Source of the DNA: Cirrosporium novae-zelandiae
Lineage: Eukaryota
NCBI GenBank assembly: GCA_026023565.1
Contig: JAPETS010000038.1
Span: 186,001-250,000, forward strand
Direction of reading: 5' to 3'
Length of the DNA: 64,000 nucleotides
Shown: in pieces, positions 6,498 through 64,000 of the stretch
How the letters are laid out: every line of letters begins with the position of its first letter
Numbering within the stretch: position 1 is the first letter of the stretch
The notes under the pieces: generated by a model
What the model saw: only the letters and a program-made list of their open reading frames with translations
Told to the model about the DNA's origin: nothing
Database searches by the model: none
Position numbers and translations under genes: made by a program

Positions 6498-6882
6498 TCT
6501 TTCTCTTATCCTCTCTTTCAATCTGTTTTTTTTATTCACTCACATTCACTCTTGAAACAAGCTACCTCACAATTCATTAACACAAGTATATCCTCTTCTT
6601 AACTGTTTGCTACTGTCTCATACAATAACAACCATCTGCCCCGCATATTCACCACTTACACATCACTCCCATCCTGTCGCTGCCGTCCGCGCAGCAGATA
6701 TCAAGATTCCCGTCCTACCAGAGACAACCGTCTATATTAGAAACACAAACGCCAAAGTGTCTCCTCACAGAGAAAGAACCACGACCCGGATCTATTATAC
6801 GGAGTCCGAGTCAACACGCTCGTCGTCTCCGTCTTCATCGTCACACTACCAGTCCTTGGAAATCCCATATCGACCAACCAGG

Positions 6883-7572
6883 ATGCCGTCCATAGTCCGC
6901 CGTTCCTCTCCACCGGTTGCTAAAACCGCTCCCAAGACATCTCACTCCGGCATGTATGCTGTCAAGCCTGCGGGGCCTGCGGGCCGTCCGCCATACGACG
7001 ACGAGAGCTATGTCATGAAGACCTTCTCCAAGCATTATAGAACCTGCAACACCTGCTCCCTTACCCAACGGGAGCTCTGTGCCAAAGGGATGTCATATGC
7101 TGTTGAAGTGACCGAATATGTTTTTAGGAAGGCCGGCCGACATTACTCCGTTATTGATGGCCAGCAGTTGACAGAAATTGATTTCCCCAAGGATTGCGAT
7201 GCAACAAGGAGACTTTTGAAACTTGTTGAGGACGGAATGGTTCTGAACACCGGGAAGCCGAGGCCAAAGAGCTGGGATGCAACTTATGGCATTTCCAACC
7301 GACCAGTCGGCGGAGAGCCAATTCGCGAGATGAAGCCTAACAGGCATGTATCTTTCAGCCTTGAACCTGAGCGCAACACATCCACCAAGAAGACTGAACG
7401 CCATCACCGGGACCCCGCGAAATACCCTGACCGAGGGTCGTTGTATTACAAAGACATGGAAGACAGGAGGCGGTGGAGGCAAGAGGAAGAGAATGAGCCA
7501 GCTTACTATGTTGTCTCAGCCCACCCGTCGACCCCCTACAAGAAGGAGCGACAGCAAGCCTACTACCGGTGA
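6883..7572 (+). CDS. Hypothetical protein (229 aa from first ATG), intronless, with a H-x3-C-x2-C-x7-C motif
   Basis: Part of ORF 6607-7572; first ATG at 6883 (MPSIVRRSSP...). Coding-like composition; globular core FSKHYRTCNTC...LCAKG...YVFRKAGRHYSVIDG. Confidence 0.75.
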   Translation: MPSIVRRSSPPVAKTAPKTSHSGMYAVKPAGPAGRPPYDDESYVMKTFSKHYRTCNTCSLTQRELCAKGMSYAVEVTEYVFRKAGRHYSVIDGQQLTEIDFPKDCDATRRLLKLVEDGMVLNTGKPRPKSWDATYGISNRPVGGEPIREMKPNRHVSFSLEPERNTSTKKTERHHRDPAKYPDRGSLYYKDMEDRRRWRQEEENEPAYYVVSAHPSTPYKKERQQAYYR

Positions 7573-12326: not shown

Positions 12327-15168
12327 ATGACGGGGCGCGTTCAACAAGACAGCTTCATAGATGACGGCAGCGAACAATGGTATGCTCGCTCTGATCCAAA
12401 ATATATCTCCTCGGCCCTCACATGGCCCCGAGTTTGATGGTTGACGTTGCTTTTTTCTAGTCCACTATGTATCGAAGAGTTCGACCTATCAGACAAAAAC
12501 TTCAAGCCATGCCCTTGCGGCTATCAAGTACGAGAATCCTCCTACGACTTTTTCATACCTTATATATACTCCCCCAAAAAACGACCGGTCCTCTTACTGT
12601 TAGATGGAAGTTGAACAGCTACTAATTACCTGTACATGAACAGATATGCCAATTTTGCTACAACAATATCAAGACGACGATGAATGGCCTTTGTCCGGCA
12701 TGTCGAAGGCCATATGATGAAAAGAACATCGAGTGGAAAGTCATAAGTCCTGAAGAGTAAGGTTTTTTGTCGATCATGATGCTGGAGGGGTCCTTCTAAC
12801 ACTGAGCTAGGTTTAAAGCAGACTTGGCACTACAAGCGAAAAAGAAGGCTGCTGCCCGACAGAAGGAAGCAGAGAAACGGCAGGCCGAATCCCAAAGTCG
12901 AAAGCACTTGGCCGGATTACGGGTTGTACAGAAGAACTTGGTTTACGTCGTTGGACTTAGTCCTCAGGCCCGGAAAGAAGAATTGATGCAAATGCTTCGA
13001 GGCCCAAATTACTTTGGACAATATGGGAAGATTATCAAGATCGTAGTCAATACACCCAAAGAAGGACAGTCGATGGGTGTATATGTCACCTTCTCGTCCA
13101 AAGAGGAAGCGGAAAAATGCATTGAAGCTGTCGATGGCTCCCATAACGGTGACCGAGTTTTAAGGTATGGTAGGAAGTTTTGGTATATTGGCAATGCTAA
13201 TAGGGTATCAGGGCACAATTTGGCACGACTAAATATTGTTCCGCTTTCCTCCGAAATGAGCCATGCATGAACAAGAACTGCATGTTCCTACATGAAACTG
13301 GAGAGGACACTGACAGTTTCAGCCGACAAGATCTTTCCTCCATGAACGTGGTTTCTACTCAACGCCCTGCGCAGCCTGGATCAACGCATTCCTCTCATGC
13401 CCAACTTGCACACCCACCTGTCCACCCTCAAGCGCCGCCTCAGCAAGCTCCTCAAACTATGGCTGCTGCTTCTCAACCTATGCGACGGCAAGGAAGCAAG
13501 GAAGATACAATGAGCCGATCGGATAGCGGCGATGGATCAGCACTCCCTTCCACTGCAAGCTGGGCGGCAAAGTCAAACCAGGCCCATCCAAGTAGAACAA
13601 GCAGTCGAGCTGCCAGTCGAGCCGCCAGTCGAGCCGCCAGTCGAGCCGCCAGTCGAGCAACACCGAGTCCCAAGACTATCAATGCTGCCCCAGCAATACA
13701 GGCGACACAAGCGACACCAGCAACACCAGCAGCACAACCAGTACAGCCAGTACAACCAGTACAACCAGTACAACCAACACCAGCAACACAAGCGGCACAG
13801 GTGCCCGACAGCACCAAACCTGAAGAGCCTCCAGCATCTGTGGAAGCTCCCAAAAGCCCAAGTCTGTCTGATACTCCTGTTGCTCGGACATCTTCAGACT
13901 CCGAAAGTCCCAAAGTCAAGCCTCAGTCGCCCGAAGTTGCTCCGTATCTTAAAGAGATTCTTCAATCAGTCGTTAATTTCGGGTTTTCCTTCTCCGATGC
14001 GTCATTAACCACCGAAGAGCGAAATATATTAGCACATTACCCTTCACTGATAGATAAACATGGAGGTATAAAACGCCGGCTACAACGAGAGAAGGCAGAA
14101 GAACAGTTAAAGAAGAAGAAAGAAGCGGAACAAGCTGCTCTTCGTGCCTCTGAAGAAGCCACCGAAAGTGGTTCTTTACAGCTTGGCGGAGAACCCGAGG
14201 ACAGTCGAGATGTGGGCGCAGGGAATATTGGGAGACAAGGTCCCAGAACAGTTATTCAACCACCGCAGCAGAGTGCCATGCCAAGTCAAGCTCTGGATGG
14301 ATTAGGCAATATTCCGAGCATTCCCAACCGTCGCAGCTTGACCCCACAGCAATTGATGCTGCTGAAATTCACCGGGCACACTTCTTTTGACCAATATCAG
14401 TCTGCTTTTGGCCTTGATAACCTTCAGTCAAGTCAGTACCACAATCAGCAGGTTCCAAACCACGCCAGACAATCTTCACGCTATTCATTCGCAACCGAGA
14501 CTGGGGGAATTCCAGCGGTAAAATCCGCAGTAAACTCTAAATTCTCATCTCAGTCGCAACAACTGCAGTCAAATAACCACTTCTACGGCACTGGTGCACA
14601 AGGACCACCGCCAGGCCTTAAGGCAGCTGGCACTCCGCCAATCAGCGGTGGTGGGATGTTTGGTCAAGGGCATGGATTTACAAGCACGATGAATGGTGGC
14701 CTGAATTTTGCCGCTACAAACAACATGAACAAGGACACCAATGCTGAATTGATGCGAGATTTGTTAAGAGGCCGGAATTCGCTTAGTGGGGTCAGTGGGC
14801 AAGGATTTGACATGACAAAGCGTGAGTTTATGTTTCCTTCCTTTCTTCAGCAACAACGTTATTCCTCTACACCTTCACCTGCCCCTTCTGCCCCTGCCCT
14901 GGGTCTTTTCAGTTCTCTTCATGGACCTCAGTCAGTCTACCATGATTCAGTTCCCCTTAAGCCAAAGAAAAAGGGGAAGAAGCACAGACATGCTAACACT
15001 TCCTCCTTTGGGGGGGGTGGGATAGTTGATCTTGCGGACCCGAGTATTTTGCAGGCGAGAATGCATCAAGGGACCGCTGGCGCGGGGCAGGGGCTCTACG
15101 GTGGTCACGGTCAAGGTGGGTACAACCAATCTAATATGATGTATGGCGGTGGCTTTGGTAAATGGTGA
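12327..15168 (+). CDS. NOT4: CCR4-NOT E3 ligase Not4/Mot2, short isoform (847 aa); exons 12327-12379, 12461-12527, 12644-12756, 12811-13164, 13212-15168
   Basis: Spliced RING CPLCIEEFDLSDKNFKPCPCGYQICQFC..CPACR, RRM (LAGLRVVQKNLVYVVGL..YFGQYGKI) and C3H1 (GTTKYCSAFLRNEPCMNKNCMFLH); all junctions in frame. Confidence 0.93.
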
Positions 15169-15724
15169 CGGAGTTTTTCACTTCATAATCTTGTTTTCTA
15201 TTCTTCGCCTTGCTTTTGGGAGCGATGGAGGTTTTGATGTTGTTTTTCTTCTCAGCTAGCGATGCATGAGACGAAATGGCCGCTTCGGTATCTATGCGGA
15301 AAGTGTCTCTGGCGTTGGGTCATCGGCTCGGTATGGTGGGATATTGAGGATGATGCATGCATGGAGCCATCTACTTCATTCTCCCTTTTTCAATGACAGC
15401 ACCGGTGAAGATCCTTTCAGCGGGATTAATTCTTTCAATTCGTGGCTCCCTAGTTGTACGTTAAGTTCCCCTGCCCTGTCTCTAACTGCAGACAGAGAGA
15501 TGAAAATCCATTCTTACATGTATTATTCCATAGATTTTGGCCACGTCATGTTATGAGAATCTGCGAGCCCAGAAGTTTTGTAGAGGCCATACGTGTATAT
15601 TAATTATGGCCCTTTATGAAGATTTAATCGTTGGCGATCTCCTTTGGAACGAACACAAGTGACGATGCACTATTTTGAAGCTGCTGCTGTCTAGCTGTAC
15701 TTTGCTGACCATGTCATCCTTCAG

Positions 15725-17913
15725 GTTCAGGTTCCATCGTATCTCCTTGGGACACGGCAACTATTGGCTCCAATATTGGCTCGCCCATTAGCATCCAAGC
15801 TCCTATCGGCTCTCGTCCTTGGGCCGAAGTACTTCAATCAAGTAGCAAATCTACGCCCATCTCTGCACCGCCTGGACTTTCTTTGCCCCACGGTCATCCT
15901 GCATCTATTGCCGCTCATCTATCATCCAATATATCTGAAGGGGCAGGTAGTGCAAGGAGTTCGCCTCTTACTAGGCTTGCATTTCCACCTGCAATCCCCG
16001 TCATCCCTCCCGTTCGCGCTGCTACGCCTGCTAAGAAAATTTGGCCAGAGCCAGCACCAAAGAAAGAAGAAAATACTGTAGACGAACTGAAAGCCAGAAG
16101 TCCTTTGCAAGATCCTCATGAAGAGTCTGAACATAAAGGTCCAGGCGAGATCAGCTATGGATCTCCGGTCAAGAAGCGGACAAAGTCTCCAAAGAAAGCA
16201 CAGGAGAAAAGGATTGATGCTCCAGATACCATGAGCAAGTCCGCTGAGTCCAAGGATCAAGTGCATTCCAACAGCAACGAGAAACAAACTGAAACTCAGA
16301 CCCGTACCCAGAAAAAGGCTCCAGGCAAGCTGGATATATCGGCAGCGAAGGCTGCAAGTCATATCTTACATGCAGCTCCTCCTAGCTCGTCGGGTGATGC
16401 CGACAGTCCGTTCAGGAGAGAATCCGTGGCTGCTACTCCTTTAGCACCACTGTCACAACCATCGACGCCTTCAAAGTCTCCTCGAAGGTTAGATTCGCCT
16501 ATACCGAAACACACTCAGCCAAGGACCCTACGCCTCGTGGCTACTCCCAGGACCGAGACGCCTCCTGCAGTTCCAGGGACTCCTACATCTGCCGCCGTCA
16601 AGGCCGCCGGATTCGATACCGCCGTGAAGTTGTCATCGAGACAAGCGAGTATTACTTCTCATCGGCCTGGTACCCCGGCCAGTACTTTTGTCTCGGATAC
16701 CGCATCTTTGACTTCAACGTCTATTTCTCGTGCAAACTCTCCACCTCCTGGTAAAGCCGGACCTACACCTATCAGGCAAATAAGCAAGAGTCAGGCAAAA
16801 AAAGAGAGACAAGCTCGAGCAAAGGCTGCAGCAGCGGATGCAAAAAGGGTCGAGGTCGCGGTGCATCACGAGGAGGTCGTGCAAGCTCCCATTGAAGGAC
16901 GCAAGAAGAAAACGAAGAAACCAATATCACATGTTACTTCCAAGTCAAGACCTGCCACCCCTTCAACAGCACAGGGTTCTGATAAGGAGCGGCAAGATTC
17001 TGACAAGACTTCAGGGAAGGAATCAGGCAAGGAATCAGGCAAGGGAGGAAAAATCAAAGGATCTAATAACGGCACCCAACCTGCCGCCGCGGAACCCCCC
17101 AAACCGGTTGACGAGAAGACGCTTCTTGCCCAACTCACCGCTGCATCCATTCTCTCTGACCTCCAGTCGCGTGGGGACCTCGACTTGTCTTCCCTTGCCT
17201 TTTTTAAGAATGTCCCCGGCCTGAATTATCGCTTTGAGACGTCGAATCCGACCCTTGCCGATTTCCCGGAACCTAAATCTCTTGCGAAATTGACAGTCGA
17301 AGACAAAGCCAGACTGTCGAAAGGCGAGCCTGTTCACATCGTCTCTCCACCAAACCCTGGATCGCGTAGCTTAGGTGTAAAACTTATGATCACCCCAAGC
17401 GGACGACGTCTTTATTGTCTTCCACCAGAGCAAGAGATGCGGTATCTGACACTCGAGCGTTCCATCAAAGAGTGCTCTGGACCGGCTGAATACCATCCAT
17501 CAAAGCCGAGTCCCTGGCTAGATGGTAAGAACCTACCGAGAGTACAAGCACCCACCGCATCAAATACCGACAAAAGAATTCCCACCAGCTGGGACGCCTT
17601 CGTGGACCCCTTGGACGCAGCCGGAGGGGGAAGAGGTAAAGAATACCCAGACTGGGAAGCCCTCCAAGAAGGCGGACCCGTCGGAGGAAACGCAGTTGCG
17701 GAAGCGGTGGTGGCCCCAACACCCAGCAGCGCAAGACAACAGCTGCAGCAAGTACAACAGCTACAGCAGCAGCAACAATCACAGCATCTCAAAGGAATCG
17801 AAGAAATCAAATCCGAATGGGAAAAAGCAAGAAAGCAAACAGAAGCCCAGGAGAAAAAATTAAACGCGCTTATTAAAAAGAATAAACGACTAGCGTTTGG
17901 AAGTGGGCATTGA
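15725..17913 (+). CDS. NOT4: Terminal exon of long Not4 isoform (S/P/T-rich disordered region plus C-terminal coiled coil)
   Basis: Frame is open from 15709 with no early ATG. It is preceded by branch GCTGAC (15704) and TTCAG (15724), and phase 1 matches donors at 14822 and 15116. Ends EKKLNALIKKNKRLAFGSGH. Confidence 0.75.
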
Positions 17914-30902: not shown

Positions 30903-32459
30903 ATGGCGCTGAAAGTTAGACATCTCAATGCGGATAGGTACGTGCAGTACAAAAACGTCAACTTGCCAGTTGGGACTTTCTGACATCTCTGTAGTACATA
31001 TCTCCTCACCTTTTCTCCTAGCGAAACATCCACCGACAGCGTACTTCCTCCTTCACCTCGATCCTTTGACGACCCGGACTGCTTCTCAATACTAGTTGAT
31101 CCCTGGTTATGCGGGTCCTGCTCTGTTTTACATCCAAGATTTGCTCTTACTAGACATTCTTCTCCACCGTTAATACAGCACCTATCCGAGATCCCTGATC
31201 CAGATGTCGTTCTCATATCCCAGGATAAACCCGACCATTGTCACGAGGAAACGCTGCGTCAACTCTCTCCAGATACCAGAGCCCTGATAATAGCGGAACC
31301 CAGAGCTGCGAGGAAGATACGTCAATTTAAGCATTTCCCTCGATCTCGCATATTCTCTCTTCCCAGATATGATTCTCGGAAGCGTAATACGATATGCCGT
31401 ATCCAAATCCCGGCCTTGAGCTTTCATGGCAGCCCAGGCGAAGTCACTTTAACCCTTTTAACTCCCAAGTTTGATATGACGGGGTTGCATAATGCAATTG
31501 GAATCACTTACCGCCCACCTACTTCATCTGGGAACCCATCTGGCGGTAAAGCTCCTCCGACAACATCATTTGATCTTCCCATCCAATCCGCCTCTGGGTT
31601 TGATGAGTATATACCACCTGTACCGCCACTCCCTGCGCTTCGACCCGCAATGTCTATGCCGAATATGGCGTCTCCTCTAATATCCCCACAAGTTGATTCC
31701 AACTTTGACGCATCATCCACTTATGCTGAGTCCACATATGCGGAGTCCACCTCGTCTAGTGTTTTCACCCTCCCAATCCAAGGCTTCAACCGTCCGAACA
31801 TGCACAAACGCGCCTCGACAATCATGACTCTTGATCTACCCATCCAATACCCCTCGACCAGCGTCGCCCCCACCTGTAAATCGACTGTTAGGCTCCCAAT
31901 TCAGCACAATACGGTCCGTTTTAACGAACCTCTTCCGACACCACCAGACTCTCCAGCATCCTCCTCATCCACATTACCCGACTGCAGTCGCACAACTTCG
32001 CACAATCGTACCCCACCTCTTCCACCCGCCGCGAACCCACAAATCCTCTCTGTACTCTACGCTCCGCATGGTATCAATCTCGTCTCCGTCCTACCATATC
32101 TCTCGGCCCACATTTCCCCCATGACCAGTCACCTCTCCCTCCTTCTCCACCCATTTACCCGCGTAACAAGCCCCTGGTATCTTGGTGGGTGTATCAGCAC
32201 TGGCGCTCCAGGAGGTACCGAGATTGCCAGGGCATTTGATGCACGGTGTTGGGTTAGTACGCATGATGGGAGGAAAGAGGTTAGCGGGGCGAGTGTGAAG
32301 AGGGTGAAAAGGCAGTGTTGGGAGGTAGGGGAGATTAGAAAAATGGTCAAGGGGATTGATAATCATGATGATGAAGAGGAGGTGTGGGGCTGTGGCGGGT
32401 GTGAGGTCCGAATTATGGAAGCAGGTGAAGAAATGGTCATGGTGGCGGATATTGGATGA
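30903..32459 (+). CDS. Metallo-beta-lactamase-fold-like conserved fungal protein; exons 30903-30937, 30995-32459
   Basis: MALKVRHLNADS|TYLLTF..FSILVDPWLCG..VLISQDKPDHCHEETLRQL..LYAPHG..WVSTHD; the frame continues into ORF 31416-32459. Confidence 0.8.
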
Positions 32460-44117: not shown

Positions 44118-45464
44118 TTAATTATGATATCCGATGCGACTTAAATCATGCCGTAATTTCTGTAGGTCATTTGGAGCTGAGCATTGACCCCTAGCATTAT
44201 GCCCTGTTGGTGAGGGATGGGATGCAAGATATGATGCAAAATCTTCCTCTCGTTTGGTGGATAGACTGTTTGTTGTGCCCAAGTTATGCGCTTGTGAATG
44301 TTGATTAGACGTCTGTGCACCATTGGTACCATTCTGAGGTCTCGTGTTGTAGTCAGAGAGTGCTGCAATCGAATTATCAATCTGCGCCTGTTGATTTGTC
44401 ACTTGGGATGTATGAACTTGTTGAGGCTGAGATATCATGTTGTGTTGGTTGGATGGTGTATGAGATTGGACTTTTCTGCTAGTGACTGATGCTTTCAACC
44501 ATGCTTTCGAATATGTTGAGTATGGTGATGTTAAGACCCAGTTTTCAGGAGCGGTATGTGTACCATCGAAAGAGCCGGTGATAGCTGGTGTTTGATTATG
44601 ATGAGATGTAGCGTTTTTTGTGGATAACTCATATGCTGGCCCATAAGAGGGTGGTGCGAGCCTAGAATTCCGATTCTCAATAGATGGCCCTTCTGTGGCG
44701 AAGGATATGGCAGTATTATCTTGTCTTTCCATTGCAAGCTTTCTTCTTTTTGCTCGTCGCTGTGGGGGTTTATCTGTCGCACCTCGAGGCTCTGCAGTAT
44801 CTTCGACGACTTGTTCAATACCTCTCTTTGCCTTTCTTCTCCTATTTGGGCAGGACCCATTCCCGCGCGCCTCCAAAGCCTTCACCTGCGCCCTAGTTAG
44901 ATCATGAAATTCTCTCGTCGAGTTTGCAGCCTTCATTGCATCCGTCATATCATCAGCTATCGCCTCTTCAAACCTCCCACTCGTCCCATGATGTTGCCAC
45001 GCAAGACACCGCGTCCTACGTCTCCATCTCAGCATCCCTTGTTGAATCGCATGCTGCGAAGGACGATTATCTTCTCCATTAACACTTGGCATCATTCGCG
45101 CCCGAATATCCCTAAGCCCAATCCGAGGATCCTGGCGAATTATGGCCTCGATACGGAATTCTTCAGCCCCATTGGACAGGGTGAAGTTGAGATTCACAAA
45201 ATCCCAAATGGGTTGAGAGTCTAGGTCGAGGACGAGACGACCGCTGTGGTGCATAAGTTGTACATTGTAGTTTGGGTCTTGTCTTGTGCCTTTCTTCCAT
45301 TGGAAGAGGATGCTGGGACGGTTTTGCCTAGCTGGGCCCCAGATAATCTGGTCGGGATGAAAAGCAGTTCCATGCAACTCTTGAGCAATGGTTCTCGGTG
45401 CGATATCTGCATCGATATCAATCAGACAATTCAAGTAAGCAAAACGGATGAACTTACTAAACAT
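44118..45464 (-). CDS. Hypothetical protein with NLS-like basic clusters; 5' end uncertain (possible upstream exons to about 45620)
   Basis: 448-codon ORF; ordered core LVLDLDSQPIWDF..EEFRIEAIIRQDPRIGLRDIRARM, then RRRKAKR, RRAKRRK and a Q/N/S-rich tail. Confidence 0.65.
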   Translation of the reverse strand: MFSKFIRFAYLNCLIDIDADIAPRTIAQELHGTAFHPDQIIWGPARQNRPSILFQWKKGTRQDPNYNVQLMHHSGRLVLDLDSQPIWDFVNLNFTLSNGAEEFRIEAIIRQDPRIGLRDIRARMMPSVNGEDNRPSQHAIQQGMLRWRRRTRCLAWQHHGTSGRFEEAIADDMTDAMKAANSTREFHDLTRAQVKALEARGNGSCPNRRRKAKRGIEQVVEDTAEPRGATDKPPQRRAKRRKLAMERQDNTAISFATEGPSIENRNSRLAPPSYGPAYELSTKNATSHHNQTPAITGSFDGTHTAPENWVLTSPYSTYSKAWLKASVTSRKVQSHTPSNQHNMISQPQQVHTSQVTNQQAQIDNSIAALSDYNTRPQNGTNGAQTSNQHSQAHNLGTTNSLSTKREEDFASYLASHPSPTGHNARGQCSAPNDLQKLRHDLSRIGYHN

Positions 45465-46977
45465 TCCTAGATAAGGCGGCCTATCTGCAATTGCATACAG
45501 ATAAATAGCATATTCTCCAAGAAAAGTCAGCCATCAGCCATCATCTCAATGCCACAGGCATCTTCCAGTCCCAAAAAGAACCTGTCGAATATAAATACTC
45601 ACCCTCAGTCCCATCTCCATGAACAAACTTCAAGTTTCCAGCCTCATCAGTGTGGACTCTCCCTTGTACCACCGGCACTATATATTATCAAAATCTCTTG
45701 TAAGCAAAGTATTTAACTATGAAAGGGGAAACGAGGTTTTCAGACTCTTCTGGACGCCTCCGCGGCGAGGCATTTTCGTGTTTAAATATGGGAACAAGAT
45801 GAGAGGTCACGCATGCGCTAGGGAGCTTCTAAACTCGGTTTGACAAGCGGCAGCTGGCTGGTTGATTTGTTGGTTGTCTCACGAGGACAGCTTCTGTGAT
45901 GTGGGTGTTGAATTATTCAATCATTCATTCATAGAGTCAGACACATGCACAATCTCTCAGGAAAACCGTCTTAACAAGCCGAAATCTGAGCGCCAAACCA
46001 AACCTCAGAATAAACACCTCTTAAGAGAGTAATAACAATAACAGCCTCCTCTCCTCGACTCACGTCAAGTCAACTCAAGTCAGCTCAACTCAACTCCAAA
46101 GCATCAAAGGATTAAATCGTCCTTTCTTGCTTGCCAGCAGTGTTTGTGTCAGTTTATCACTAATCACCGAAGTTAAAGAAGAAGAAAGGAGTTAAGAAGT
46201 CCAGACGAAACTGAACCTAGAAATAGGCCAGCGGGCAGATGGTAGTTCTTTCGCTCGAAGTGTTGTTGTTAATGTTGTTGGTATTGGAATTACGGAGTAG
46301 GTTTTCTTCGTCTTCTTCCTTTTCTTTGAGGCCTCCGAGTGCCAGGAGGGGGGGAGAGGGAGGCAGGGGAGTTGTAAGCACACTGCTGCTGCTGCTGCTA
46401 ATGATGTTATTGCCACATAGAAGGATGGATGGAAGGATGCGGTCCCTTTGGTGGTGTTGATGTTGGGATGAAAGAAAGCAAGGTAATGGCTAGGAAACGC
46501 AGACTTGGAACTTGGAATTTGCCACCCTAGAGGTTCCATTTCCATTTCGAATTTGTTTTGTTTGATTTGCATAGGAACTACTACTCCCCTCTCCTTAACC
46601 CCCCTCGACGGAAATAGGTATTGGTAGGTAGGTAGGTAACCATGGGAGATTTATTGTTTGTTTATCCATCTACTCAGCCTCTTCCTCCGCTTCCTCCTAC
46701 TATTACAACGACAACTACTACTATTACAGTAATACTACAACTTGACAAATCTACGAATCTTGACACCAACCTCGTCCTCAACCCCAACCCTCTACCCGAA
46801 TCAAGCTCCACATATAAGTATAAATCCACCCTCAAGCTCAAGCTCAAGCTTTAGGAAATGCTATTTCGCATTTGACGTTCTACACCACCACCAATATATC
46901 CCCCTCAGCTCGAATAATACACCATGATACGACATACATGACATGATATGATATGATATCCATATCCATATTCATAC

Positions 46978-52468: not shown

Positions 52469-53685
52469 ATATCCCAGGTTGAGCACAAGTTACTTGGAAT
52501 AAATTCTCCTTGTAGATTAGTTGCATCAACCATTGCTAATCAATCATCCAATTATTCGTCCTCTCCTGAATCCTGCATTCTGCACTTGATCCTCACACCG
52601 TCTCATAATTATGCAACCCTCCGTAGACCACAATCGCTTGATGTTGATAAAGACATCTATTCTGCTCATATATCGTCTGAGAGTTTGCCTGTGATAGGTG
52701 AATGGTTTGTTCTATTACCGTACCGAGATTGGTACTGATACTAGGACCAAAATGACCAATACCCAAGGTAATACATCTGTCATAACACCCTTAGTAGAAA
52801 ACACCATCTTCGAAGAGCTCAAGGGAGAGATCAAGGTCGCCCTCACTCATCATGTACAATGTTCTTGCCCAAGTCCTCCTTGATTTCCCTTCTGACTCAT
52901 TCAACACATCATATGCACGGTAGCAATCAAAAATGTGAACGCGACAACATATTGAGCCAAATGGATGCCTGGACAAGAAACACGATGATCTCGCGACACG
53001 TCTTTGAGAGAATGAATGTGTTATTCTCCAGAAAATATATAAAAAGCTGAAGAGCTACTCCAATCAACTTTTCTCCTCTCATCAACAGCTATGCTATCCT
53101 GAAAACACATTCAGGCCTTCTCCCTATTTATTTGCTGTCATCAAGTTCACATCATCGAAATCATCTCAGTTTCATTTCTACTCATCTAAACTCTCCTACG
53201 TTACTCTCATTCTCCGCTCAACTGTTCTCACCAGATCGAATCAAGGTCTTCATCCCAAGAAATACTCTTCAACCATTCTGACCATACCAATCACACTTCA
53301 CTCATTTCATCCTATCAATATCAAGCCACTCAAGCTCCAAAAACGGTAAGACATCCTCAAATTTTGTCCACTTCAATCATCCTCTACATATCTGCTACTG
53401 GTTTCATATCTGGTCTTTTGAGCCATTTTGCGTGTTCTCACAAGTCCTCAAAACCTCGTGTAATAGGTCAGCATATATCGCTACTCATAATAGGGTGATA
53501 TCTCAGTTTCCTCACATTTATCTTGTCAATTTCAACTGTCATTTCAGAGGCTACCCTTTTCATGTATAAGTCCTGAGTTTCTGAACAGCACCCCATCAGT
53601 CCTTGTGACTGTGAATCTTCTATTTCTAATTACTAATACCTAAACTTGAAAGGAATCACATCAACCAACTCACTTCTTTGTTAAC

Positions 53686-56341
53686 ATGAAGTCAGACAAT
53701 ATGATAAATGATCTACCTCTTCATAATATCCCTGCTCACCCCCCAGGGCAAGAGAACAACACACCAGAAATAGTCAACTCGAGGGATTTAATTCCCAACT
53801 CAAATCAAATGGCGCCAGTTACCTCAAGAGGAGGCTCGATAGAATCTCAACAAACTGCAGAAATTTCTACCACAGGAAGGGGATCTCTTGACAACATGGT
53901 ATGCGGCGTAAAAACTCTTGTCGAGGGAATTCAAAGGCTCCGTCATATGGGAGTGGAAGACCTGGTACTGCCACTTCCGAAGATCGTCGTTGTGGGCGAT
54001 CAAAGTACTGGAAAGAGCTCTCTCATTGAGGGGATATCGGAGATCAAGGTCCCTAGGAGCAGCGGGTGCTGCACTAGGTGCCCCCTCGAAATCAATTTGA
54101 CAGAAGATAATGACCCCGAGTCTAGCTGGAAATGTATTATCACCTTAAGCAAGAAGTATGCTTATGATGGCCCCGAACACATGACCAGACGCGGGGCGAG
54201 AGATTATCCTCGCCTAACACGAGTGAGGCCTTATGGACCCTGGGTGATGCAGGACCAGGAGGATTTCCAGTTTTGCAGTCTGACATCCAAAGAGCAAGTC
54301 CAAGATGCCCTTCACTGGGCCCAGCTGGCGAATCTGAATCCAGCAAAGCATCATCAGGTCTTTGTGCCAGGGTTTAACGAAAACACTACACCTGACGAGA
54401 TGCAAGTCAAATTTTCTCCAAACGTTGTTCGCCTTGAAATCAGCGGGCCTGGCCTTCCGAACCTGTCCTTTTACGATCTGCCGGGTGTTATCGCTGTCCC
54501 TGAGATTGATCATGAAGCTTACCTTGTGGGCGTTGTCAAAAATTTGGTTAAGGAATATATAAAATCGGAAAACTGTATCAATTTACTGACTTTACCTATG
54601 AATGCCGATGCAGCCACATCAGCTGCGGCAGGTATTCTGAAAATGGCATCTGCTCAGGAAAGGACCATTGGAGTTCTGACTAAACCGGATCGTGTTCAGA
54701 TTGGGATGGGAGAGTCTTTTGACGAATGGAAGAATATACTGGAAGGCAAAAAGTTCTCCGTTGGCCATGGGTATTATGTTATCAAAAATAACCCGGATCC
54801 AAAGATTGAGCACGGGCAGGCACGGAAAGAAGAACTCGATTTTTTTGAAGTAGGTTATCTAGCCTCAAATCTATATGGCAATGACAGTTAAAAAATCATT
54901 AGGGTGAGCCGTGGATAACAGATCTCTTGTCGTTCAAAGATCGATTCGGAACTGTGCAGCTACAAACGAAATTGTCGCAATTGCTCACCGACCAAATTAA
55001 AGCATGCCTTCCCGAGATTAAGAATAAAGTGGAAGAAAAGCTTGGTGACGTCGAGGCGGAACTGGCTACTCTACCTGAGCCACACGGAAATCAGCCGATG
55101 TTGTTGTTAAGACAACTCACCTCCTTCGAACAGGATCTAAAAACACATTTTAACGGAGGATCAGAAGATTTTCCATTACAGAAACAGTGGATTGATCTCG
55201 CTACTAGCTTTCGAGACGGCCTAATGTCATCCCGCCCGGCATTCACTATGCGGGATGCCACTGAGAAGGTTCGATCTCAGTCCCCGACAGCTAGGTCGAT
55301 GGAAGATGCAATACTCATAGATGACGACGAATCCGACCACAAGCCCCATGGAAATAAGAGGAAGCTGGCAAATTCAAACACGCCTCATACACCACGTAAG
55401 CGCGTAATGAAAACATTTGATGGAGAATGGATAATAGAGACTAAGGAAAGTTTCACCTTGGCTAAAATTCGCAGCGTGAATAAAGAAGTTCATACCACGG
55501 GCATCCAAACTGCCGTAAATGACAAGGCTCTGGAAAAAATTAGCAAACTAAGCATTTGTCACTGGAAAAAGGTTGGCGAAGAGTTTATAAATCTTACCGG
55601 CAAGATCCTGAAGAACATTTTATTGAACCAACTTTCGGAGACGTTCGGGCGTTACAAGGGTACCCCACTATATACAGAATCGGAGAAGACAACGGAACGT
55701 TTTCTCAACAATGCCCTCAAGGAACAGCTGGAGTACACTGCCTCCCATTTTGAAATGGAATATAGCAAACCAATGACGATGAACCGTAAATATCTCATCC
55801 AGGTTAAAGAAGAGAACAAGGCTCAACTTGTCGCCAAACGGCTAGAAATCCGCAGAGAGGTTGCCGTCGTGAGATCTCCGAACAAGGCGGACAGAACCCC
55901 AAAGCTAGCCGATGCACTGCTGGGACCGGATCCATTTGCTGACGAGGTGGATGCTATGGCTGCGAGTATCATAATACCTTAGTGATCGATCTTGAAGCTT
56001 ACATATCACAGAATATTCGAGCCTACTACGAATGTGCTTGCTCGCGATTTGTTGACACTATATGCCAAGGCATACAAATTCAACTGTTTGAGAAAATTAG
56101 GGATAAGCTTCCTAAAACACTCGAGGACATGTTCGGCATTATGAAACCGGACGGTAAGCTGCTCTACCCTTGAACCCCCTTTTCATGACATCAAGGCTAA
56201 TTGAAGGAAGCAAACGAACGCTGTGCTCGTCTGATGGCCGAAGACGAGGAAAAAGAATTTCGACGCTGTCAACTGAAGAAGGAACAACAAACTTTGAAAG
56301 AAGCCCAGGAGTGGATTTCAACTGTTCATGACGGGTACTGA
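53686..56341 (+). CDS. Dynamin-superfamily GTPase, Mx-like fungal type; exons 53686-54849, 54903-55961, 56012-56153, 56211-56341
   Basis: LPKIVVVGDQSTGKSS (G1), CTRCP (G2), DLPG (G3), TKPD (G4); GED-like IRAYYECACSRFVDTICQ..LMAED. Probable 5'UTR intron 53346-53652. Confidence 0.9.
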
Positions 56342-56918: not shown

Positions 56919-57995
56919 ATGTCCTCCCCATTGTCAGCCTCCGCCCTTTTCTCCGTCAAAGGTCTTGTAGCCGTGATAACTGGCGGGGCCACAGGTCTTG
57001 GACTTACCATGGCGCGAACGCTGGCTCAAAACGGGGCGTCGAAAATCTATATAGTCGGGCGGACTCCCGGGACTCTTGCTTCAGCGGCCTCGTCGCCGGA
57101 TGTCCCCCCCGGTGTGCTTATTCCGGGTGAATGCGATGTCACCTCTAAGGCATCTCTTGAAGCTTTAGTTAAGCGAATTGAGAGCGAGATAGGGTATGTC
57201 GATGTTTTGATTTCCAATGCCGGGATTATGGGACCGGGAACGTTGGGACCTGCAAAGACGAATCCTGATTGCGATGTGAAAGTCTTGCAGAAACATCTGT
57301 GGGAGGAGGCAGGCGTGGAGGACTGGATGGAGACGCTAAAGACAAATGTAGTGGGTGTGTTTTTCTCGGCGGTGGCATTCTTGGGTTTGTTAGATGAGGG
57401 GAGCAAGAGAAGGAGAGCAGCAGTTGAGAGAGAGGGGTTGTGGATGGGTGGGGAGAGTATGGTAATCGTGACCGGGAGTGCAGGCGGGTTTAATAGAAGG
57501 CCGTTGGGGAGTTTCTCGGTGGGTTGATGGCTACCATGGACGTGTTCAGCAAGAGGTGGTTAAGCTAACTGATGATTATGATGGGGACAGTATGCAGCTT
57601 CCAAAGCCGCAGTTACACATCTCACCAAACAAGTATGTATTTCAAAAATCACCCTCCTTCAAATTCCCATCCATCTCAACACCACATTCACACACTAACA
57701 TTTTCAGCTCTCAACGGTCTTCTCGCCCCTCGGCATCCGCGCAAACGTTCTTTGTCCAGGCGTTTTCCCTAGCACACTCTCCTCGCATCTAACGGCTCCT
57801 AGGGGAGAGCCAGCTCAGCGGGCCACCACGGTTGGATCTGTACCTAAAAGCACAGTCCCCGCTGAGAGATGGGGAGAAGAACAGGACATCGCGGGTGCCA
57901 TATTGTATCTGTGTGGAAGGGCCGGTGCTTATGTGAACGGGAGTGTGCTTTTGGTGGATGGGGGAGCTCTGACGCAGTTGCCAGCGACCTATTAG
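56919..57995 (+). CDS. Short-chain dehydrogenase/reductase; exons 56919-57518, 57591-57632, 57708-57995
   Basis: TGGATGLG cofactor motif, NAG, catalytic YAASK, IRANVLCPG, and YVNGSVLLVDGG. Confidence 0.92.
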
Positions 57996-59932
57996 GTGGA
58001 GCTGTTCGAGGAATGGTTGATATGAAAGCATCTATTCTGTGCTCGTATTTGGACTCGGATTGGTATCGGCGGTAGTCTAGCAGAGGTTAGCATGGACCCT
58101 TTTCGAGGCCATTGGCAGAACTAATAATTAATTGGAAATGTGTCTAGTGAGATTTGATAGGTCATTATTAGTTTTTGTACAGACTCCACATGGTGTAGAT
58201 AATGGATCCTCTCGGGAATTAATGGAAATAACAGCAAACAGACTATTCTTATCTCTTTTGCTAATCTCAGTTTCATTCGCAACATTTTTCAACTCAGCAT
58301 CTATTTCATCATAATATACTTGCCTCCTTCAGTGTTTTGCGAAATCCTTCAACATGCCGGCGAAACAAGATTGGACCGAATATTTCTTAGTTCGTTTATC
58401 TCCTTGTCGCACAAGCATATTACTTGCATTTAACGTACCCTAAAAAGACAACCTGAAGAGAAATTAGAGATCAATTTCAAGAGGTTGCAGATCTTTGATC
58501 AAATCAAGACAAGATGAATGGCGTTTTTCTGCTTATATCGTTATCACCACCGATAGTTGACTATTTTCGTATCGTTGACATTCGAGAAATGTCCCGACCC
58601 TCAGAAGAGCATTTACATCTAAAATTGGTCCAATCATATTTATACAATTCAAAGGGGGATTTGCGTGCTTTTTCATGTTAACAAAATACTTACCGGCTTG
58701 TTAATAAAACTTTCCACATAAATATGCTAGGAAAGTATCAAAACCGGTTTTTTTGCTCTCTTATCTGGGATACTTGCTGGTGATAATTTGCAGATCGACA
58801 AATGTTTGGCGTGCCACTTGATCAAATGCGGAGTACGCATACCTTTACTGAATGTCTGTCAAACACAACAAGCTGGAGCCTGGCGATATTTGGGAGTTGG
58901 TGTTGAGCTTCAGAAGCACGTCAAGGCACCAGAATCACATAGATACACATGATGTTATTTGCTTGTTCCGAGTCAGAGTACGGGTTTCGGAAAAGTTTCT
59001 GGAAGAAAGGTAAGTCACTATAATGGTTCGCCGAAGTTAACCACAACCTCGAGGACAGATGTCGAGCACACGCCAGGAACCCGATGCGCATGAGTATGGA
59101 ATTCTCATGCTGCCTCTTGGCATTGGTAGCTGGCGCAAATGAAAACAGAAGTTCGAAGTTGTTTTAGAAATGGGATCGATGAAGTGGACAGCATTGCAGA
59201 ACTTGTCGTCTTTTGAAAGATTTTGATCCTTCTTAACACGCCGTCCCATTCAGGCCTTAATACTCTCATGATGACCGCGCCTAGACTGAAGGCCGGTGGT
59301 ACATGTTTCTGGAGTCCAGACTCTCATTTCAAACTAAAGATGGTGGCTGCATTACCGTTGAGAAGACGCGGGCGCCTGGCCCCTCATGCATATGATTCAA
59401 AAAGTCCTCGTGAAATCTAGAAACCGTTGTATGCCGCTTTTTAAGCCTGGGCATAAGGTCAGAAACCTGTTCTCCTTACATTCCCGTGACATATCTTGGT
59501 GAGTCTCGTCTTTCCTGTAGACTATTTCGGGATTCTCCAGAATTTCGAATAGTCTAATTAGGAAATGGAATGCTACCCACCCCCAATCTGTGCAATCCTC
59601 AAACGACCTCTGGAGATCTAGTTTCTTGTCGAGCACACGAGCTCATATGAAATCTTGTAAGAAATATACGAAGGGTTTATTTTCTATTTTGAACATATCA
59701 ACTATAAAAAGGCATAAGCTTCCACTTGAAATCATCACCATCAACAGCATCTTCTCAGCGATCAATCAATCAGTCAATCAATCCATTGAACACAAAAGGC
59801 CTCAAAGCGACCAAAGTATCTTCAGCTTCGAATTCTGTTTCATCATATCCATCAAGCTCCTTAGCTATCAATCCTAGCCAATCAGCACATCTTCCACTTC
59901 TCTAATATCTTCAAACAAACAACGTCATCAAA

Positions 59933-60368
59933 ATGCAATTCTCCATCATCGCCGTCATCGCCCTCGCTACCCAAGCCTTTGCTGGTAAGCCCTAGCCCCC
60001 ACCTCCCTAATTAACACTCACACTAACACTCACTCACCCCCTTAGCCGCCATTCCCCCAACCACCTACAGCCTCTACATCCGGGACCTCCTAACAACCAC
60101 CAACACCAACGCCGCCACCGCCTGCAGCATCTGCACAACCGCCGCCCAATACAGTCTCGCAGTAAAAGACGCCATCGATACAAAGGAGGTCCTCAGCGAC
60201 AACGCCAGCCAGGCCTTCGCGCTCCTGAACGTGTGCACTGAGGATCTGCTCAAGAATGAACCGTCCTGCCCCACACTTATGAGCGGAGTTTTTATGAAGA
60301 TGTTTAGTGAGATGAAACAAGAGCATGATCCGGTGGCTATCTGTAAGGCTGTGAGCCTTTGTGGGTGA
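59933..60368 (+). CDS. Secreted saposin-like protein (SAPLIP), 124 aa; exons 59933-59984, 60046-60368
   Basis: Kozak-like CAAAATG; signal peptide MQFSIIAVIALATQAFA; intron GTAAGC..CTAAC..TAG in phase 1; six Cys spaced C-x2-C-x33-C-x10-C-x24-C-x5-C ending DPVAICKAVSLCG. Not in the ORF track. Confidence 0.82.
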
Positions 60369-61639
60369 GTGGGTGTGTGGTGGGTGGTAGGATGGGACGG
60401 GATGGGAGAAATTATGTGCTTTGCTTTGCTATTTTATGCTTTGCTTTGCTTTACTATGCTATGCATGGGGGTGGAGTTTTCTCGTTCAGTTTTTTTTTTT
60501 TTTCTGTATTACTACAGCATGCATGGCCCGGCGATTTTTTGCTTAGTTATAGGGGACGGGAAAAAAAAGGAACGGGGGATGAGGGGCCATCACTCCAGGT
60601 CATCCAGAACTGAGATGGATGATTTATTCAGGTTTTTTTTATTTCCATCTTATTTTTATTTTTGATGTTTCTCTCGAACGAATTGAAACGATCAAAATGA
60701 ATGAAATCCATTACCTGTACTTCCTTTCTCTCTCACTCACTCACTCACTCATACAAACTACAGAAATTCAAAATCACCCCCTGCCTACCTAACCATCTTA
60801 ACCATCTTAACCAACCAATTTAACGAATAAAATCACCCCAAATCAACTCAAATTAATCCAAAACCAAATAAGATCAATTAATTGGATGGCTTATCCGGTT
60901 TTCCTATTTCAATTCAGCTTTCCATCCCTAATTATTTCTATTTTGTTCTTTAGTCTAACTCGAAACGAAATTTTTTTTTTGGATAAATAAAATGAATGAA
61001 AACGTTTATTTATTTTTTTTTGTTTGTATTATTATTATTATTATTATTTAAGTAAAACTATAAATTAATAAGATAAGTGATAGATAAACATGGGCATGGT
61101 TTTTTTTTTTTTTTTTCGTATGTTATTATATCCTATATCCTACTATATCCTACTATACCCCTAACACCAGGCAATATCAAAGGTATCAAACCCATCTCAA
61201 GTAGCGGTAGCGGATAGCGAATATGTATGTATCTCACGCCCCCCCCTCTTTTAGCTTAAATGGCTAGGTAAATAAATAAAAGTATTTGTTGGGGCTTGAT
61301 ATCTAACACAATATCTAAGCATTTCAAAATGATTATTTTTTGTTTCGTTGCGTTCCGGTTCTTGTCCTGTCCTGTCCCTTTTTTTTTTTAATGATAATCC
61401 CCACGCCAACGCCGGGGTGACGGGTATAGATGGCTATGCATGCATGCATGTGTATTATGCATGTAAGTAAAGAGAAAAAAAGAAGGAGAAGGATTTTCTC
61501 CCTTCTCATCTCCCTTCCCATATCCCTCTCTCTCTTTTTCCACCCCTCTAACACCTCAATTCTTCCACCTACCACTGCACACACATCAACCAAGCAGAGG
61601 TAAAAACAACAAATATCCAACACCCCATCCATACACCCC

Positions 61640-64000
61640 TCACAACCTCCTAAAAACATTCCCACTCGCACTCCTCCTATCCCCCCCACCCTCACCCCCC
61701 ACCCACCTCGGCCGTTTCCTCCCCGTATCCCCCCCTTCTCCTCCCTCCCCATCACTCCGTCCCTTAGCCTTAGCCGCCAAAAACGTAATTTCCTGATCCC
61801 CAACAACAGCAGCAGCATGTCCCTGCCCCTGCCCCTGTTGTTGAAAAGATCTAGAATTCGATTTCGACTTCGAAATCCGGGATCCGAAGGTTTGGTTTGA
61901 GTTGTTGGTCCAGTGGAGATGTTTATTGTTGGTGTTGGTGTTGGTGGCGTTTTTGGAGGAGGAAGCGGAGATTTGCATTTTGAGGGGTCGAGATTGGGAT
62001 TGGGATTGGGATTTGTTTTGGTGATTGGAGCGCTTGTAGGAGGTGCTTGAGATGCGGTTTTTGTTGTTAGTGTCGGGTTCTGAGTCTGAGGTGTGATTGC
62101 GGGCATTTCTTCTGCTTTGTTGCTGGTTTTGATGGTGTTGGCGGGTGCGACGGTCGTCTTCGCTGTCGGATTCGGATCCGGATTCGGAGGAGCTGGATCC
62201 GGAGACAGAGTCCAGTTCTTCTTGTTCCACGGCCGTGAGGCCGCGTTCCCTACGGGAGTGAGGATTGAGGTTTGTAGAGTTGTCCGCGGTAGCGGTGTTG
62301 GTGCTGGGGTTGAGTTGGCGGAACTCGTGGGAAGTTTCGTCGATGGCAAAGTTTTCGTCTTGGAAGAGCTTGGAGAATCGGGAGTCGGTGAGGAGGGTGC
62401 GTGGGCCGGTTTTTTCTTGGGTGGGTTGGTCATTTGCTTCGGCTTCGGCTTCGGGTGCTGGGGCTTCGACATCTGCTTGCAGAGCAGTTTCGGCATCCAC
62501 CATGTCGTCGTCTCCGCCTTTCTTGAGGACCCTCCGTGCCCTCCTCCGCTCGTTCCTCTCCTCGCGCTCGAGGAGCCGCTCCGCTAGTCGTCTGTTGACC
62601 TTGGCCGTGACCTTCTTCCCGCCACGGATTCTGCTCTCCCTCTCGGCATCGATCTTGGCCTTTACCTTCTTCGCCCGCTCCTCTTCCCACGTGAATGGGT
62701 CGCTTATCAATCTCGCCTCCTCGTACAGTTTCTGTGCCACAAAGTATCCATGCATGTATGGACGCAGCAGCGACGTCGTTCCGATAAGGTGGTCGAGGTT
62801 CAAGGACGCGAGCTGCGGTTTCGTCAAAAATTTGTAGTTGTCGTATACCGCGCCGGTGCCGCTAGTAGCAGAGTTTGCGCTGAAGGCATTAGGATCTGTA
62901 GGATCGTCCGCCATTTCTTCGACTAGGTTGTCGAGGAATGAACACCATTTCGGTGCGGGGCCGAGCTGCGGGATAAAAAATGCATGTTGCTGGCGTCCCT
63001 CGTTGGCTGTAAGGAGCATGCCGCTGTCCGGATACCATGCCACGTCGTTGAGATCTACAGCGGGCTCGACGGCCGTCCAGGGTGCGCCATTGTGCTGAGA
63101 CCATATTTTTATGATGCGTTTATCCGAGGAAAGGATTTTGGGGTCGTCGGGGGAGAATGTGGATGCGGAAGCGAATGTTGTGGAGGACGGCGTCAGAAAT
63201 TTTAGCGTCTGGATTGGATAGCCATAGCCTTGATCCTTTTTTAGAAGAGGTTTCGGAGAACGGAGGTCATAGAGGTATATTAGACCGGTTGAAGTGCCGG
63301 TTGCGATGGTGAGGCCGCCACGGTGGAATTGTAAAGCTGTGATTTCAGGTCGAGGAGTAGATTCAGATGAGACAAAAGATGATTGGGGGGTCTGCAGGAT
63401 ACCGGCGCGGTTCTTGGACCGTGGATCAAAGAATTCAACAGTCCCTAATGAGGTTCCAAAGGCATAGAGGTTATGCGATTCTTCTGCAATGGAGGCGACG
63501 TTCACGCTCCCTGTATTAATACCACCCTGTAGCGCACCTCCACCGAGTGAATTTAGATCATCCCCACCAACATCAACCTCATAGCTGCGCATATAGCGGC
63601 CCACTTCGAGATTGAGGCGAAAGACCTCGCCAGACCCATCTTCGTTGACACCGACAGAAGGAACAAGAGCTTCGGCGGAGCGTTTATCATACTGCAAATC
63701 ACGACCATAGCGAGGCAGCCGGGTCTTATAATGGCAAGCTCCAGAAGTATGAAATTCCAACGACCGATCGCTCTGAAGATGTATCGATTTCGTATAATCA
63801 GACGAAAGAAGCTGGAACTTTATATTGAGGACTTCAGTGTGTCTCGCGAACGAGAGAGACAGCTGGGGGAGATAGTGGGTGTGTATTTGTGGCTTGTAGG
63901 TCCCGGTGCTCATGATCCAGTCGCCATCTTCGCTAATACGGATGCATTGAGAAGCTTCTTCGAATTCGAAATCCTGCAGCAGTTCCACCCTGTTTGCATA
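61640..64000 (-). CDS. ENP2: Small-subunit biogenesis WD40 protein Enp2/NOL10, 5'-partial
   Basis: RVELLQDFEFEEAS, STGTYKPQ, LSSDYTKSIHLQSDR, FFIPQLGPAPKWCSFLDNLVEEM, YDNYKFLT, RPYMHGYF, and NUC153-like DSRFSKLFQDENFAIDETSHEF. Confidence 0.95.
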   Translation of the reverse strand, partial: YANRVELLQDFEFEEASQCIRISEDGDWIMSTGTYKPQIHTHYLPQLSLSFARHTEVLNIKFQLLSSDYTKSIHLQSDRSLEFHTSGACHYKTRLPRYGRDLQYDKRSAEALVPSVGVNEDGSGEVFRLNLEVGRYMRSYEVDVGGDDLNSLGGGALQGGINTGSVNVASIAEESHNLYAFGTSLGTVEFFDPRSKNRAGILQTPQSSFVSSESTPRPEITALQFHRGGLTIATGTSTGLIYLYDLRSPKPLLKKDQGYGYPIQTLKFLTPSSTTFASASTFSPDDPKILSSDKRIIKIWSQHNGAPWTAVEPAVDLNDVAWYPDSGMLLTANEGRQQHAFFIPQLGPAPKWCSFLDNLVEEMADDPTDPNAFSANSATSGTGAVYDNYKFLTKPQLASLNLDHLIGTTSLLRPYMHGYFVAQKLYEEARLISDPFTWEEERAKKVKAKIDAERESRIRGGKKVTAKVNRRLAERLLEREERNERRRARRVLKKGGDDDMVDAETALQADVEAPAPEAEAEANDQPTQEKTGPRTLLTDSRFSKLFQDENFAIDETSHEFRQLNPSTNTATADNSTNLNPHSRRERGLTAVEQEELDSVSGSSSSESGSESDSEDDRRTRQHHQNQQQSRRNARNHTSDSEPDTNNKNRISSTSYKRSNHQNKSQSQSQSRPLKMQISASSSKNATNTNTNNKHLHWTNNSNQTFGSRISKSKSNSRSFQQQGQGQGHAAAVVGDQEITFLAAKAKGRSDGEGGEGGDTGRKRPRWVGGEGGGDRRSASGNVFRRL

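Follow-up and report, generated by a model that had tools for sequence, protein, structure and literature searches.

The DNA considered here is a 64,000-nt window of contig JAPETS010000038.1 (positions 186,001 to 250,000) from the fungus Cirrosporium novae-zelandiae; the term window refers to this whole stretch, and all coordinates are positions within it. In this 64-kb window, a two-exon gene was confirmed on the forward strand at 59933-60368, exactly where a preliminary description, made from the letters alone, had placed it. After splicing, its coding sequence of 375 nt specifies a precursor of 124 aa with a leader peptide and six cysteines, which, judged from its sequence, is most likely a lineage-restricted, highly diverged, single-domain member of the saposin-like protein (SAPLIP) superfamily. 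Removal of the intron at 59985-60045 restores the reading frame, and the product is letter-for-letter identical to the deposited NCBI protein KAI9730131.1 (P0002), encoded on a contig of 264,685 bp and annotated as "hypothetical protein" in the metagenome-assembled genome of C. novae-zelandiae (Pezizomycotina, class Xylobotryomycetes in the NCBI taxonomy). Thus, the same model was reached independently by a gene predictor, and the gene lacks a name but is not hidden. The preliminary description, which had called it hidden, was right in that the gene is absent from a prokaryote-style list of open reading frames (ORFs), but the protein had already been deposited. The gene, its flanking signals and the regions of the encoded protein, including the saposin B-type (SapB) core, are organised as follows:

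59703..59709, forward strand: putative core promoter as read from the sequence, a TATAAAA box followed by a pyrimidine/A-rich leader, about 225 nt 5' of the ATG
59933..59984, forward strand: exon 1 (52 nt), with the ATG, a 17-codon signal-peptide-like leader and the first base of codon 18
59985..60045, forward strand: predicted spliceosomal intron (61 nt, phase 1) with a GTAAGC donor, an ACTAAC branch site and a TTAG acceptor
60046..60368, forward strand: exon 2, encoding the remainder of the 107-aa mature protein and the TGA stop (60366-60368); codon usage +22.8 bits
60048..60122, forward strand: N-terminal extension of 25 residues, rich in Pro, Thr and Asn, weakly predicted as helix; no counterpart in the compared SapB domains, the profile alignment beginning at Cys26
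60123..60362, forward strand: SapB-like core from Cys1 to Cys6 (80 aa, cysteine gaps 2/33/10/24/5), matched by a 14-domain profile at 22.7 bits over positions 4-76 of the model
60201..60209, forward strand: N-A-S sequon, a candidate glycosylation site 11 residues before Cys3
60243..60365, forward strand: best-conserved part, the C-terminal half resembling SapB_2 (from Cys4 to the D-P-x2-I-C-K-x3-L-C end), as found by hhalign and repeated BLASTP matches
60365..60370, forward strand: GTGAGT overlapping the stop, within a G/T-rich run; as far as can be told from the sequence and an acceptor survey, an unused donor

The locus holds a genuine gene of a Pezizomycotina fungus, with two exons and an isolated position. 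The ATG at 59933 carries an A at -3, and the ACTAAC branch site is perfect and lies 19 nt from the 3' end of the intron (branch A near 60026). In the frame of exon 2 a stop is present just upstream (the ORF spans 60027-60368), and in-frame ATGs occur only 3' of the fourth cysteine codon. Therefore, an upstream exon is required for the protein. Codon usage was scored with a table of 1767 codons from four Pfam-supported ORFs in the same window, and the log-likelihood of exon 2 was +22.8 bits in the proposed frame, with values between +5.8 and -53.2 bits in each of the five remaining frames. The coding sequence has a GC content of 0.55 (0.70 at third codon positions) compared to 0.39-0.40 in the 500-nt flanks, and thereby forms a GC island within an AT-rich spacer. 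A regular expression for the six-cysteine pattern, applied to all six frames of the window, matched once, and when the window was shuffled block-wise a match to this pattern was obtained in just 1 of 200 shuffles.

The leader comprises 17 aa with a hydrophobic core and ends in A-F-A at positions -3 to -1, as read by eye; the cleavage site of the signal peptide was placed by the -3/-1 rule. The predicted mature protein of 107 aa (about 11.4 kDa) is acidic, with an isoelectric point (pI) of 4.68, seven Lys and Arg versus 11 Asp and Glu, and one His; the pI of the core is 4.64. The chain terminates one residue past Cys6. Hence the leader, the Thr-rich stretch behind it, the cysteine spacing of 2/33/10/24/5 and the non-cationic character of the domain were all found as first described.

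To place the protein, phmmer was run without a word index against 1,835,955,588 cluster representatives at E <= 0.001. Three proteins only were recovered: the protein itself, P0003 (678 aa, E 1.5e-7, six matching stretches) and P0004 (692 aa, E 2.4e-5, seven matching stretches). The latter two are unnamed metagenome proteins from JGI/IMG, each known from just one short contig (of 2.2 and 3.2 kb), and these best matches are only 27-28% identical to the protein from the window. Both belong clearly to the SapB family. Pfam searches of P0003 and P0004 gave E 5e-63 and 1e-81, respectively, for SapB_2 and E 4e-55 and 7e-80 for SapB_1, with 6-7 SapB_1 and seven SapB_2 stretches in each, so that they represent seven-domain prosaposin-like proteins. 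P0003 begins with a signal-peptide-like leader of its own. In BLASTP comparisons the C-terminal 32-59 residues of the protein from the window aligned to every repeat in P0003 and P0004, and the whole core (residues 18-105) aligned to the last domain of P0004 (592-672) with five cysteines in register and Cys3 off by one. In several of the P0003 and P0004 domains an N-x-T sequon likewise occurs near the position of the N-A-S sequon listed above, 13-14 residues before Cys3 (by eye).

The phmmer E-values are inflated, because the whole-protein scores sum six to seven repeated, non-independent domain matches, and this counts against taking them at face value as a sign of kinship. Therefore, a single-domain test was made, in which 14 domains were cut from P0003 and P0004, aligned and built into a hidden Markov model (HMM). 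These Pfam-confirmed SapB domains have cysteine gaps of 2/26-27/9-10/24/5, compared to 2/33/10/24/5 in the protein from the window. The HMM aligned residues 26-105 of the mature protein (Cys1 to Cys6) at 22.7 bits, a score that was reached by none of 1000 shuffles in which the cysteines were kept fixed (mean 1.7, standard deviation 2.4, maximum 18.7) and by none of 1000 full shuffles (maximum 9.2). When hhalign was used against the 14-domain alignment, a probability of 92.5% and a score of 38.9 were obtained over 41 columns, confined to residues 66-106, while 100 cysteine-fixed shuffles reached at most 2.8% and a score of 16.9. Since these scores lie well above those of the cysteine-fixed shuffles, the non-cysteine residues of the C-terminal half, i.e. 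the SapB_2 region, carry the family signal. At the level of sequence, the similarity to bona fide SapB domains is statistically supported, and homology to the SAPLIP superfamily appears probable. In a protein-language-model atlas, SapB-bearing clusters and one ARMET_N cluster were among the nearest neighbours, with a best score for the core of 0.88 (197 of 256 features shared); by calibration, atlas scores below 0.9 serve as a lead only. The ARMET_N family is also saposin-like. In a search of solved structures with the 14-domain profile, the best matches were saposins A, C and D, but this profile is dominated by the P0003 and P0004 domains and the matches are not independent evidence for the protein studied here.

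A number of results weigh against the assignment to the saposins. Clear similarity does not extend beyond the C-terminal half, and the N-terminal half shares little with SapB domains beyond the C-x2-C motif and its helicity. Moreover, the spacer between Cys2 and Cys3 is six to seven residues longer than in the compared SapB domains, so that the match to SAPLIP spacing that had been proposed holds for all gaps except this one (33 versus 26-27). The HMMER comparison with SapB profiles, which had been suggested as a check, gave no match at E <= 10 for the Pfam models SapB_1 (PF05184), SapB_2 (PF03489) and Saposin (PF20825), whether the mature protein, its halves or the core was used. A direct phmmer search of PDB sequences returned no saposin; the sole weak match was RNF4 (E 0.049), which was treated as noise. 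Structure prediction, a further suggested check, was likewise of little help. Two AlphaFold2 models were of low confidence, with a mean predicted local distance difference test (pLDDT) score of 55.9 without an alignment and 50.6 with a three-row alignment, in which Cys3 was misaligned by MAFFT, and this may have lowered model quality. Both low-confidence models are all-helical, with one helix carrying Cys1 and Cys2, one reaching to or past Cys3, one starting from Cys4 and one containing Cys5. This helix order might be that expected of a saposin, a reading of low confidence, while the three-dimensional packing is not trustworthy. With the first, low-confidence model, Foldseek found no match in the PDB at E <= 0.001, and an exhaustive VIA fold search gave generic helical matches (best Z 7.9) with no saposin among the 50 matches listed. 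Thus, the saposin assignment proposed in the preliminary description finds backing in sequence kinship (phmmer, the 22.7-bit profile match and the hhalign probability of 92.5%), but not in the Pfam SapB models, AlphaFold or Foldseek.

The search for relatives adds to these reservations, as no orthologue or paralogue was detected in any protein, metagenome, viral or window search. A word-indexed search of 5.8 billion proteins returned only the protein itself among 715 candidates of near length and none of 180 candidates of longer length; repeated with the three-row alignment, it again returned only the protein itself (757 candidates). No paralogue was found within the 64-kb window by tblastn of the protein. 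The metagenome scan yielded two loci from 164 pattern matches, and both were spurious, one lying opposite a membrane-protein gene and the other in an unrelated frame without the cysteine pattern. From five pattern matches in the viral scan two loci remained, both inside a 658-aa frame that by eye may resemble a Rad50/SbcC-type ATPase; they were rejected as the likeness consists of C-x2-C and a shared eight-residue word. A single-domain relative with an identity of about 30% would not reach significance in the 1.8-billion search, and fungal genomes were not searched at the DNA level; therefore, "orphan" means here that no relative is detectable so far. Horizontal transfer, raised as a possibility at first, is unsupported as a recent event: the identity of the best matches is only 27-28%, codon usage agrees with that of the neighbours and the intron is of fungal style.

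In the surroundings, a short-chain dehydrogenase (SDR) gene lies upstream on the same strand and ends near 57995, and the AT-rich DNA of about 1.9 kb between it and the gene described here has no convincing ORFs. On the downstream side, very AT-rich simple-sequence DNA extends for about 1.2 kb as far as the 3' end of a minus-strand NOL10/Enp2-like gene. The other genes of the window encode BUD22, a copper-fist factor, a mitochondrial carrier, an F-box protein, a GDP-mannose pyrophosphorylase-like protein and a dynamin-family protein. These are housekeeping genes, and the window represents neither an effector island nor a metabolite cluster. Within what is presumed to be the 5' leader or promoter, a short (TCAA)n-like microsatellite (CAATCAATCAGTCAATCAATCC) occupies 59757-59786, downstream of the TATA box and ahead of the ATG. 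The 3' flank (60369-61130) consists of unusual simple sequence, with a run rich in G and T (GGGTGAGTGGGTGTGTGGTGGGTGG), TGCTTTGCT repeats, multiple T tracts of 13-17, units resembling (CTCA)n/(CTTAACCAT)n and a stretch of (ATT)n, and the GC content drops to 0.21 around 60900-61100. On the minus strand, a 416-codon Pro/Thr/Lys-rich open frame (61333-62583) runs, in a different frame, across the region for the low-complexity C terminus of the NOL10-like gene (61640-64000, minus strand); it probably reflects biased composition rather than a gene. The reading frame of the dynamin-family gene (53650-55982, forward strand) is interrupted, with Dynamin_N and Dynamin_M on two separate long open frames only 11 nt apart, owing to a very short intron, to a frameshift or to an error in the assembly. 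Five further long open frames (338-734 codons) matched no Pfam family at E <= 1e-5, four on the forward strand (6556-7572, 13204-15168, 15709-17913 and 30984-32459) and one on the minus strand (44118-45533).

Compared to known systems, the protein shares most with the SapB domains of prosaposin-like proteins. These have the same order and nearly the same spacing of cysteines and a C-terminal ending of the type D-P-x2-(I/V)-C-K-x3-L-C; the charge of the protein is likewise acidic, and its N-glycosylation sequon before Cys3 has a counterpart in several of the P0003 and P0004 domains. In contrast to prosaposin-like proteins, the protein from the window has a single domain, no SapA modules and an identity of only about 23-34%, and it differs from SapB domains by the spacer of 33 instead of 26-27 residues between Cys2 and Cys3, by the extra 25-residue N-terminal extension and by not being recognised by the Pfam models. 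The stand-alone antimicrobial SAPLIPs, i.e. amoebapore A, NK-lysin/granulysin, the caenopores (SPP) and the Apls, are also small proteins with a signal peptide and one SapB-type domain. NK-lysin is strongly cationic. The strong positive charge of the NK-lysin/granulysin type is not found in the present protein (pI 4.68), and antimicrobial SAPLIPs gave no direct match in PDB sequences and appeared only in the profile search dominated by the P0003 and P0004 domains.

Taken at its most specific, the evidence leads us to favour, with a probability of roughly 0.6, a secreted acidic precursor with one very diverged saposin-B-type domain that would bind lipids or membranes preferentially under acidic conditions. 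The 17-aa signal peptide would direct the precursor into the secretory pathway at the endoplasmic reticulum, and three disulfides (C1-C6, C2-C5 and C3-C4 by analogy to the family) would lock a helical bundle, which in SapB-type domains is compact and comprises four or five alpha-helices. SAPLIPs generally gain membrane affinity as the pH drops. Because the mature protein is acidic, it stands nearer to the saposins than to NK-lysin, and this saposin-like charge, together with the rise in SAPLIP membrane affinity as the pH falls, favours an acid-activated role in lipid binding or extraction. At low pH the carboxylates would be protonated and membranes or lipids would be bound preferentially, as for the lysosomal saposins and unlike the cationic NK-lysin. 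The helical shell might then open, and lipids could be extracted or solubilised, e.g. to be presented to hydrolases. The vacuole or an acidified extracellular niche may be the site of action.

The same saposin-like protein could also be a membrane-permeabilising antimicrobial or cytolytic factor of the amoebapore, caenopore or Apl type, secreted against bacteria or competitors and activated at low pH. Its layout, a signal peptide followed by one free-standing SapB-like domain, is the one established for amoebapores and caenopores. Furthermore, the Apls of Dictyostelium depolarise liposomes only at acidic pH, with an activity that increases with acidity and all but disappears from pH 5.2 upwards (PMC11542183). 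However, the authors of that study attribute the activity to cationic charge in acidic surroundings (PMC11542183), whereas the protein described here is net negative (pI 4.68, seven Lys and Arg versus 11 Asp and Glu) and has one His. A pore-forming antimicrobial role is therefore less likely, and we regard it as improbable. The main sceptical alternative is that the protein is not a saposin at all, but a lineage-specific, small, secreted, cysteine-rich helical protein of the effector type, whose SapB likeness arose by convergence or chance. Such a protein would explain why no Pfam model matches, no confident saposin fold is predicted, no relatives are found and the N-terminal half shares little beyond C-x2-C. 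There is a precedent in Cbp1 of Histoplasma capsulatum, a virulence factor of the Ajellomycetaceae that is small, secreted, helical and lineage-restricted, has an acidic surface and six cysteines in three intramolecular disulfides, and was once called a structural homologue of saposin B (PMC5463121, PMC9255746). That likeness came from nuclear magnetic resonance, and crystal structures then revealed a different, novel 'binocular' dimer fold without a saposin bundle (PMC9255746; structure 7R79 in the PDB). Both Cbp1 and the present protein are small six-cysteine ascomycete proteins, acidic and lineage-restricted, although helicity and secretion are predictions in the present case. A match to SapB sequences, however, is obtained for the present protein and, in the available text of the Cbp1 studies, none is reported for Cbp1; conversely, no Cbp1 chain was recovered in the PDB sequence search at E <= 10. 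In the search of 1.84 billion representatives, true multi-SapB proteins were the sole matches besides the protein itself, all six cysteines align (Cys3 off by one in BLASTP) and the scores lie well above those of cysteine-fixed shuffles, so that a non-homologous effector seems unlikely.

Highly improbable, finally, is the view that no independent functional gene exists, the predicted ORF being a product of chance or decay or, alternatively, a saposin module that forms the N terminus of a larger enzyme through splicing from the GTGAGT at 60365. Apart from the lack of a detected orthologue, this view draws on the consensus donor that overlaps the stop. The GTGAGT at 60365-60370 is indeed present, but the longer spliced form envisaged in the preliminary description is not supported. 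When the coding sequence was joined at this donor to every AG 40-2500 nt downstream, the only extensions of more than 100 codons lay at 62209-62483, in frames antisense to the minus-strand NOL10-like gene, and no splicing into a larger known enzyme was found among these acceptors. The ORFs directly downstream (60369-60665) and upstream (59521-59877) matched no Pfam family, and the distance to the SDR gene is about 1.9 kb, all of it AT-rich spacer. Given the outcome of the acceptor survey over 40-2500 nt, a fusion through this donor to a larger enzyme was rejected. The polypeptide has one domain, the stop follows directly after Cys6-Gly, no further SapB or catalytic domain is present, and the deposited model also ends at 124 aa. 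Against a chance or decayed ORF stand the frame-specific codon signal, the GC island and the rarity of the six-cysteine pattern in shuffled windows, where just 1 of 200 contained it.

Stand-alone SapB-type saposins are well known in animals and amoebae. For Pezizomycotina no description of such a protein was found in the openly searchable literature, a scope outside which subscription journals, InterPro and UniProt may record some. Other fungal proteins of the secretory pathway have likewise been tied to saposins. SapA of Drechmeria coniospora has three Saposin-A domains and, in the available text, no SapB domain, and was called atypical for fungi (PMC4859500). Sclerotinia SS1G_12769 was presented as an analogue of Na-SLP-1 by low-score threading only (C-score -2.32, TM 0.585; PMC4039746). 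In fungal acid sphingomyelinases an N-terminal SapB domain is a module of a large enzyme, and the available text of the study places these enzymes in Mortierello-, Zoopago-, Glomero- and Mucoromycota and not in Dikarya (PMC13161914). Thus, the initial statement that fungal SapB domains mostly occur in acid sphingomyelinase-like enzymes was too broad, as this arrangement is reported there for non-Dikarya lineages only (PMC13161914). More tentatively, and with a low probability, the gene could encode the only detectable stand-alone SapB-type saposin in Pezizomycotina: either an ancient SAPLIP that was kept in Xylobotryomycetes and lost or diverged elsewhere in Dikarya, or an old acquisition from protists, in both cases with a role in acid-activated lipid handling. 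In this same doubtful scenario, the N-terminal extension and the lengthened region of helices 1 and 2 would be features absent from described SAPLIPs.

The practical weight of the finding is modest, since it concerns one orphan gene in one metagenome-assembled genome. If the fold and the lipid activity of the proposed acidic saposin were true, a SAPLIP would join the repertoire of small secreted proteins of Pezizomycotina, and curated family models would be shown to miss such diverged members. Moreover, the protein would then offer a simple, acidic, single-domain saposin for the study of pH-gated lipid extraction.

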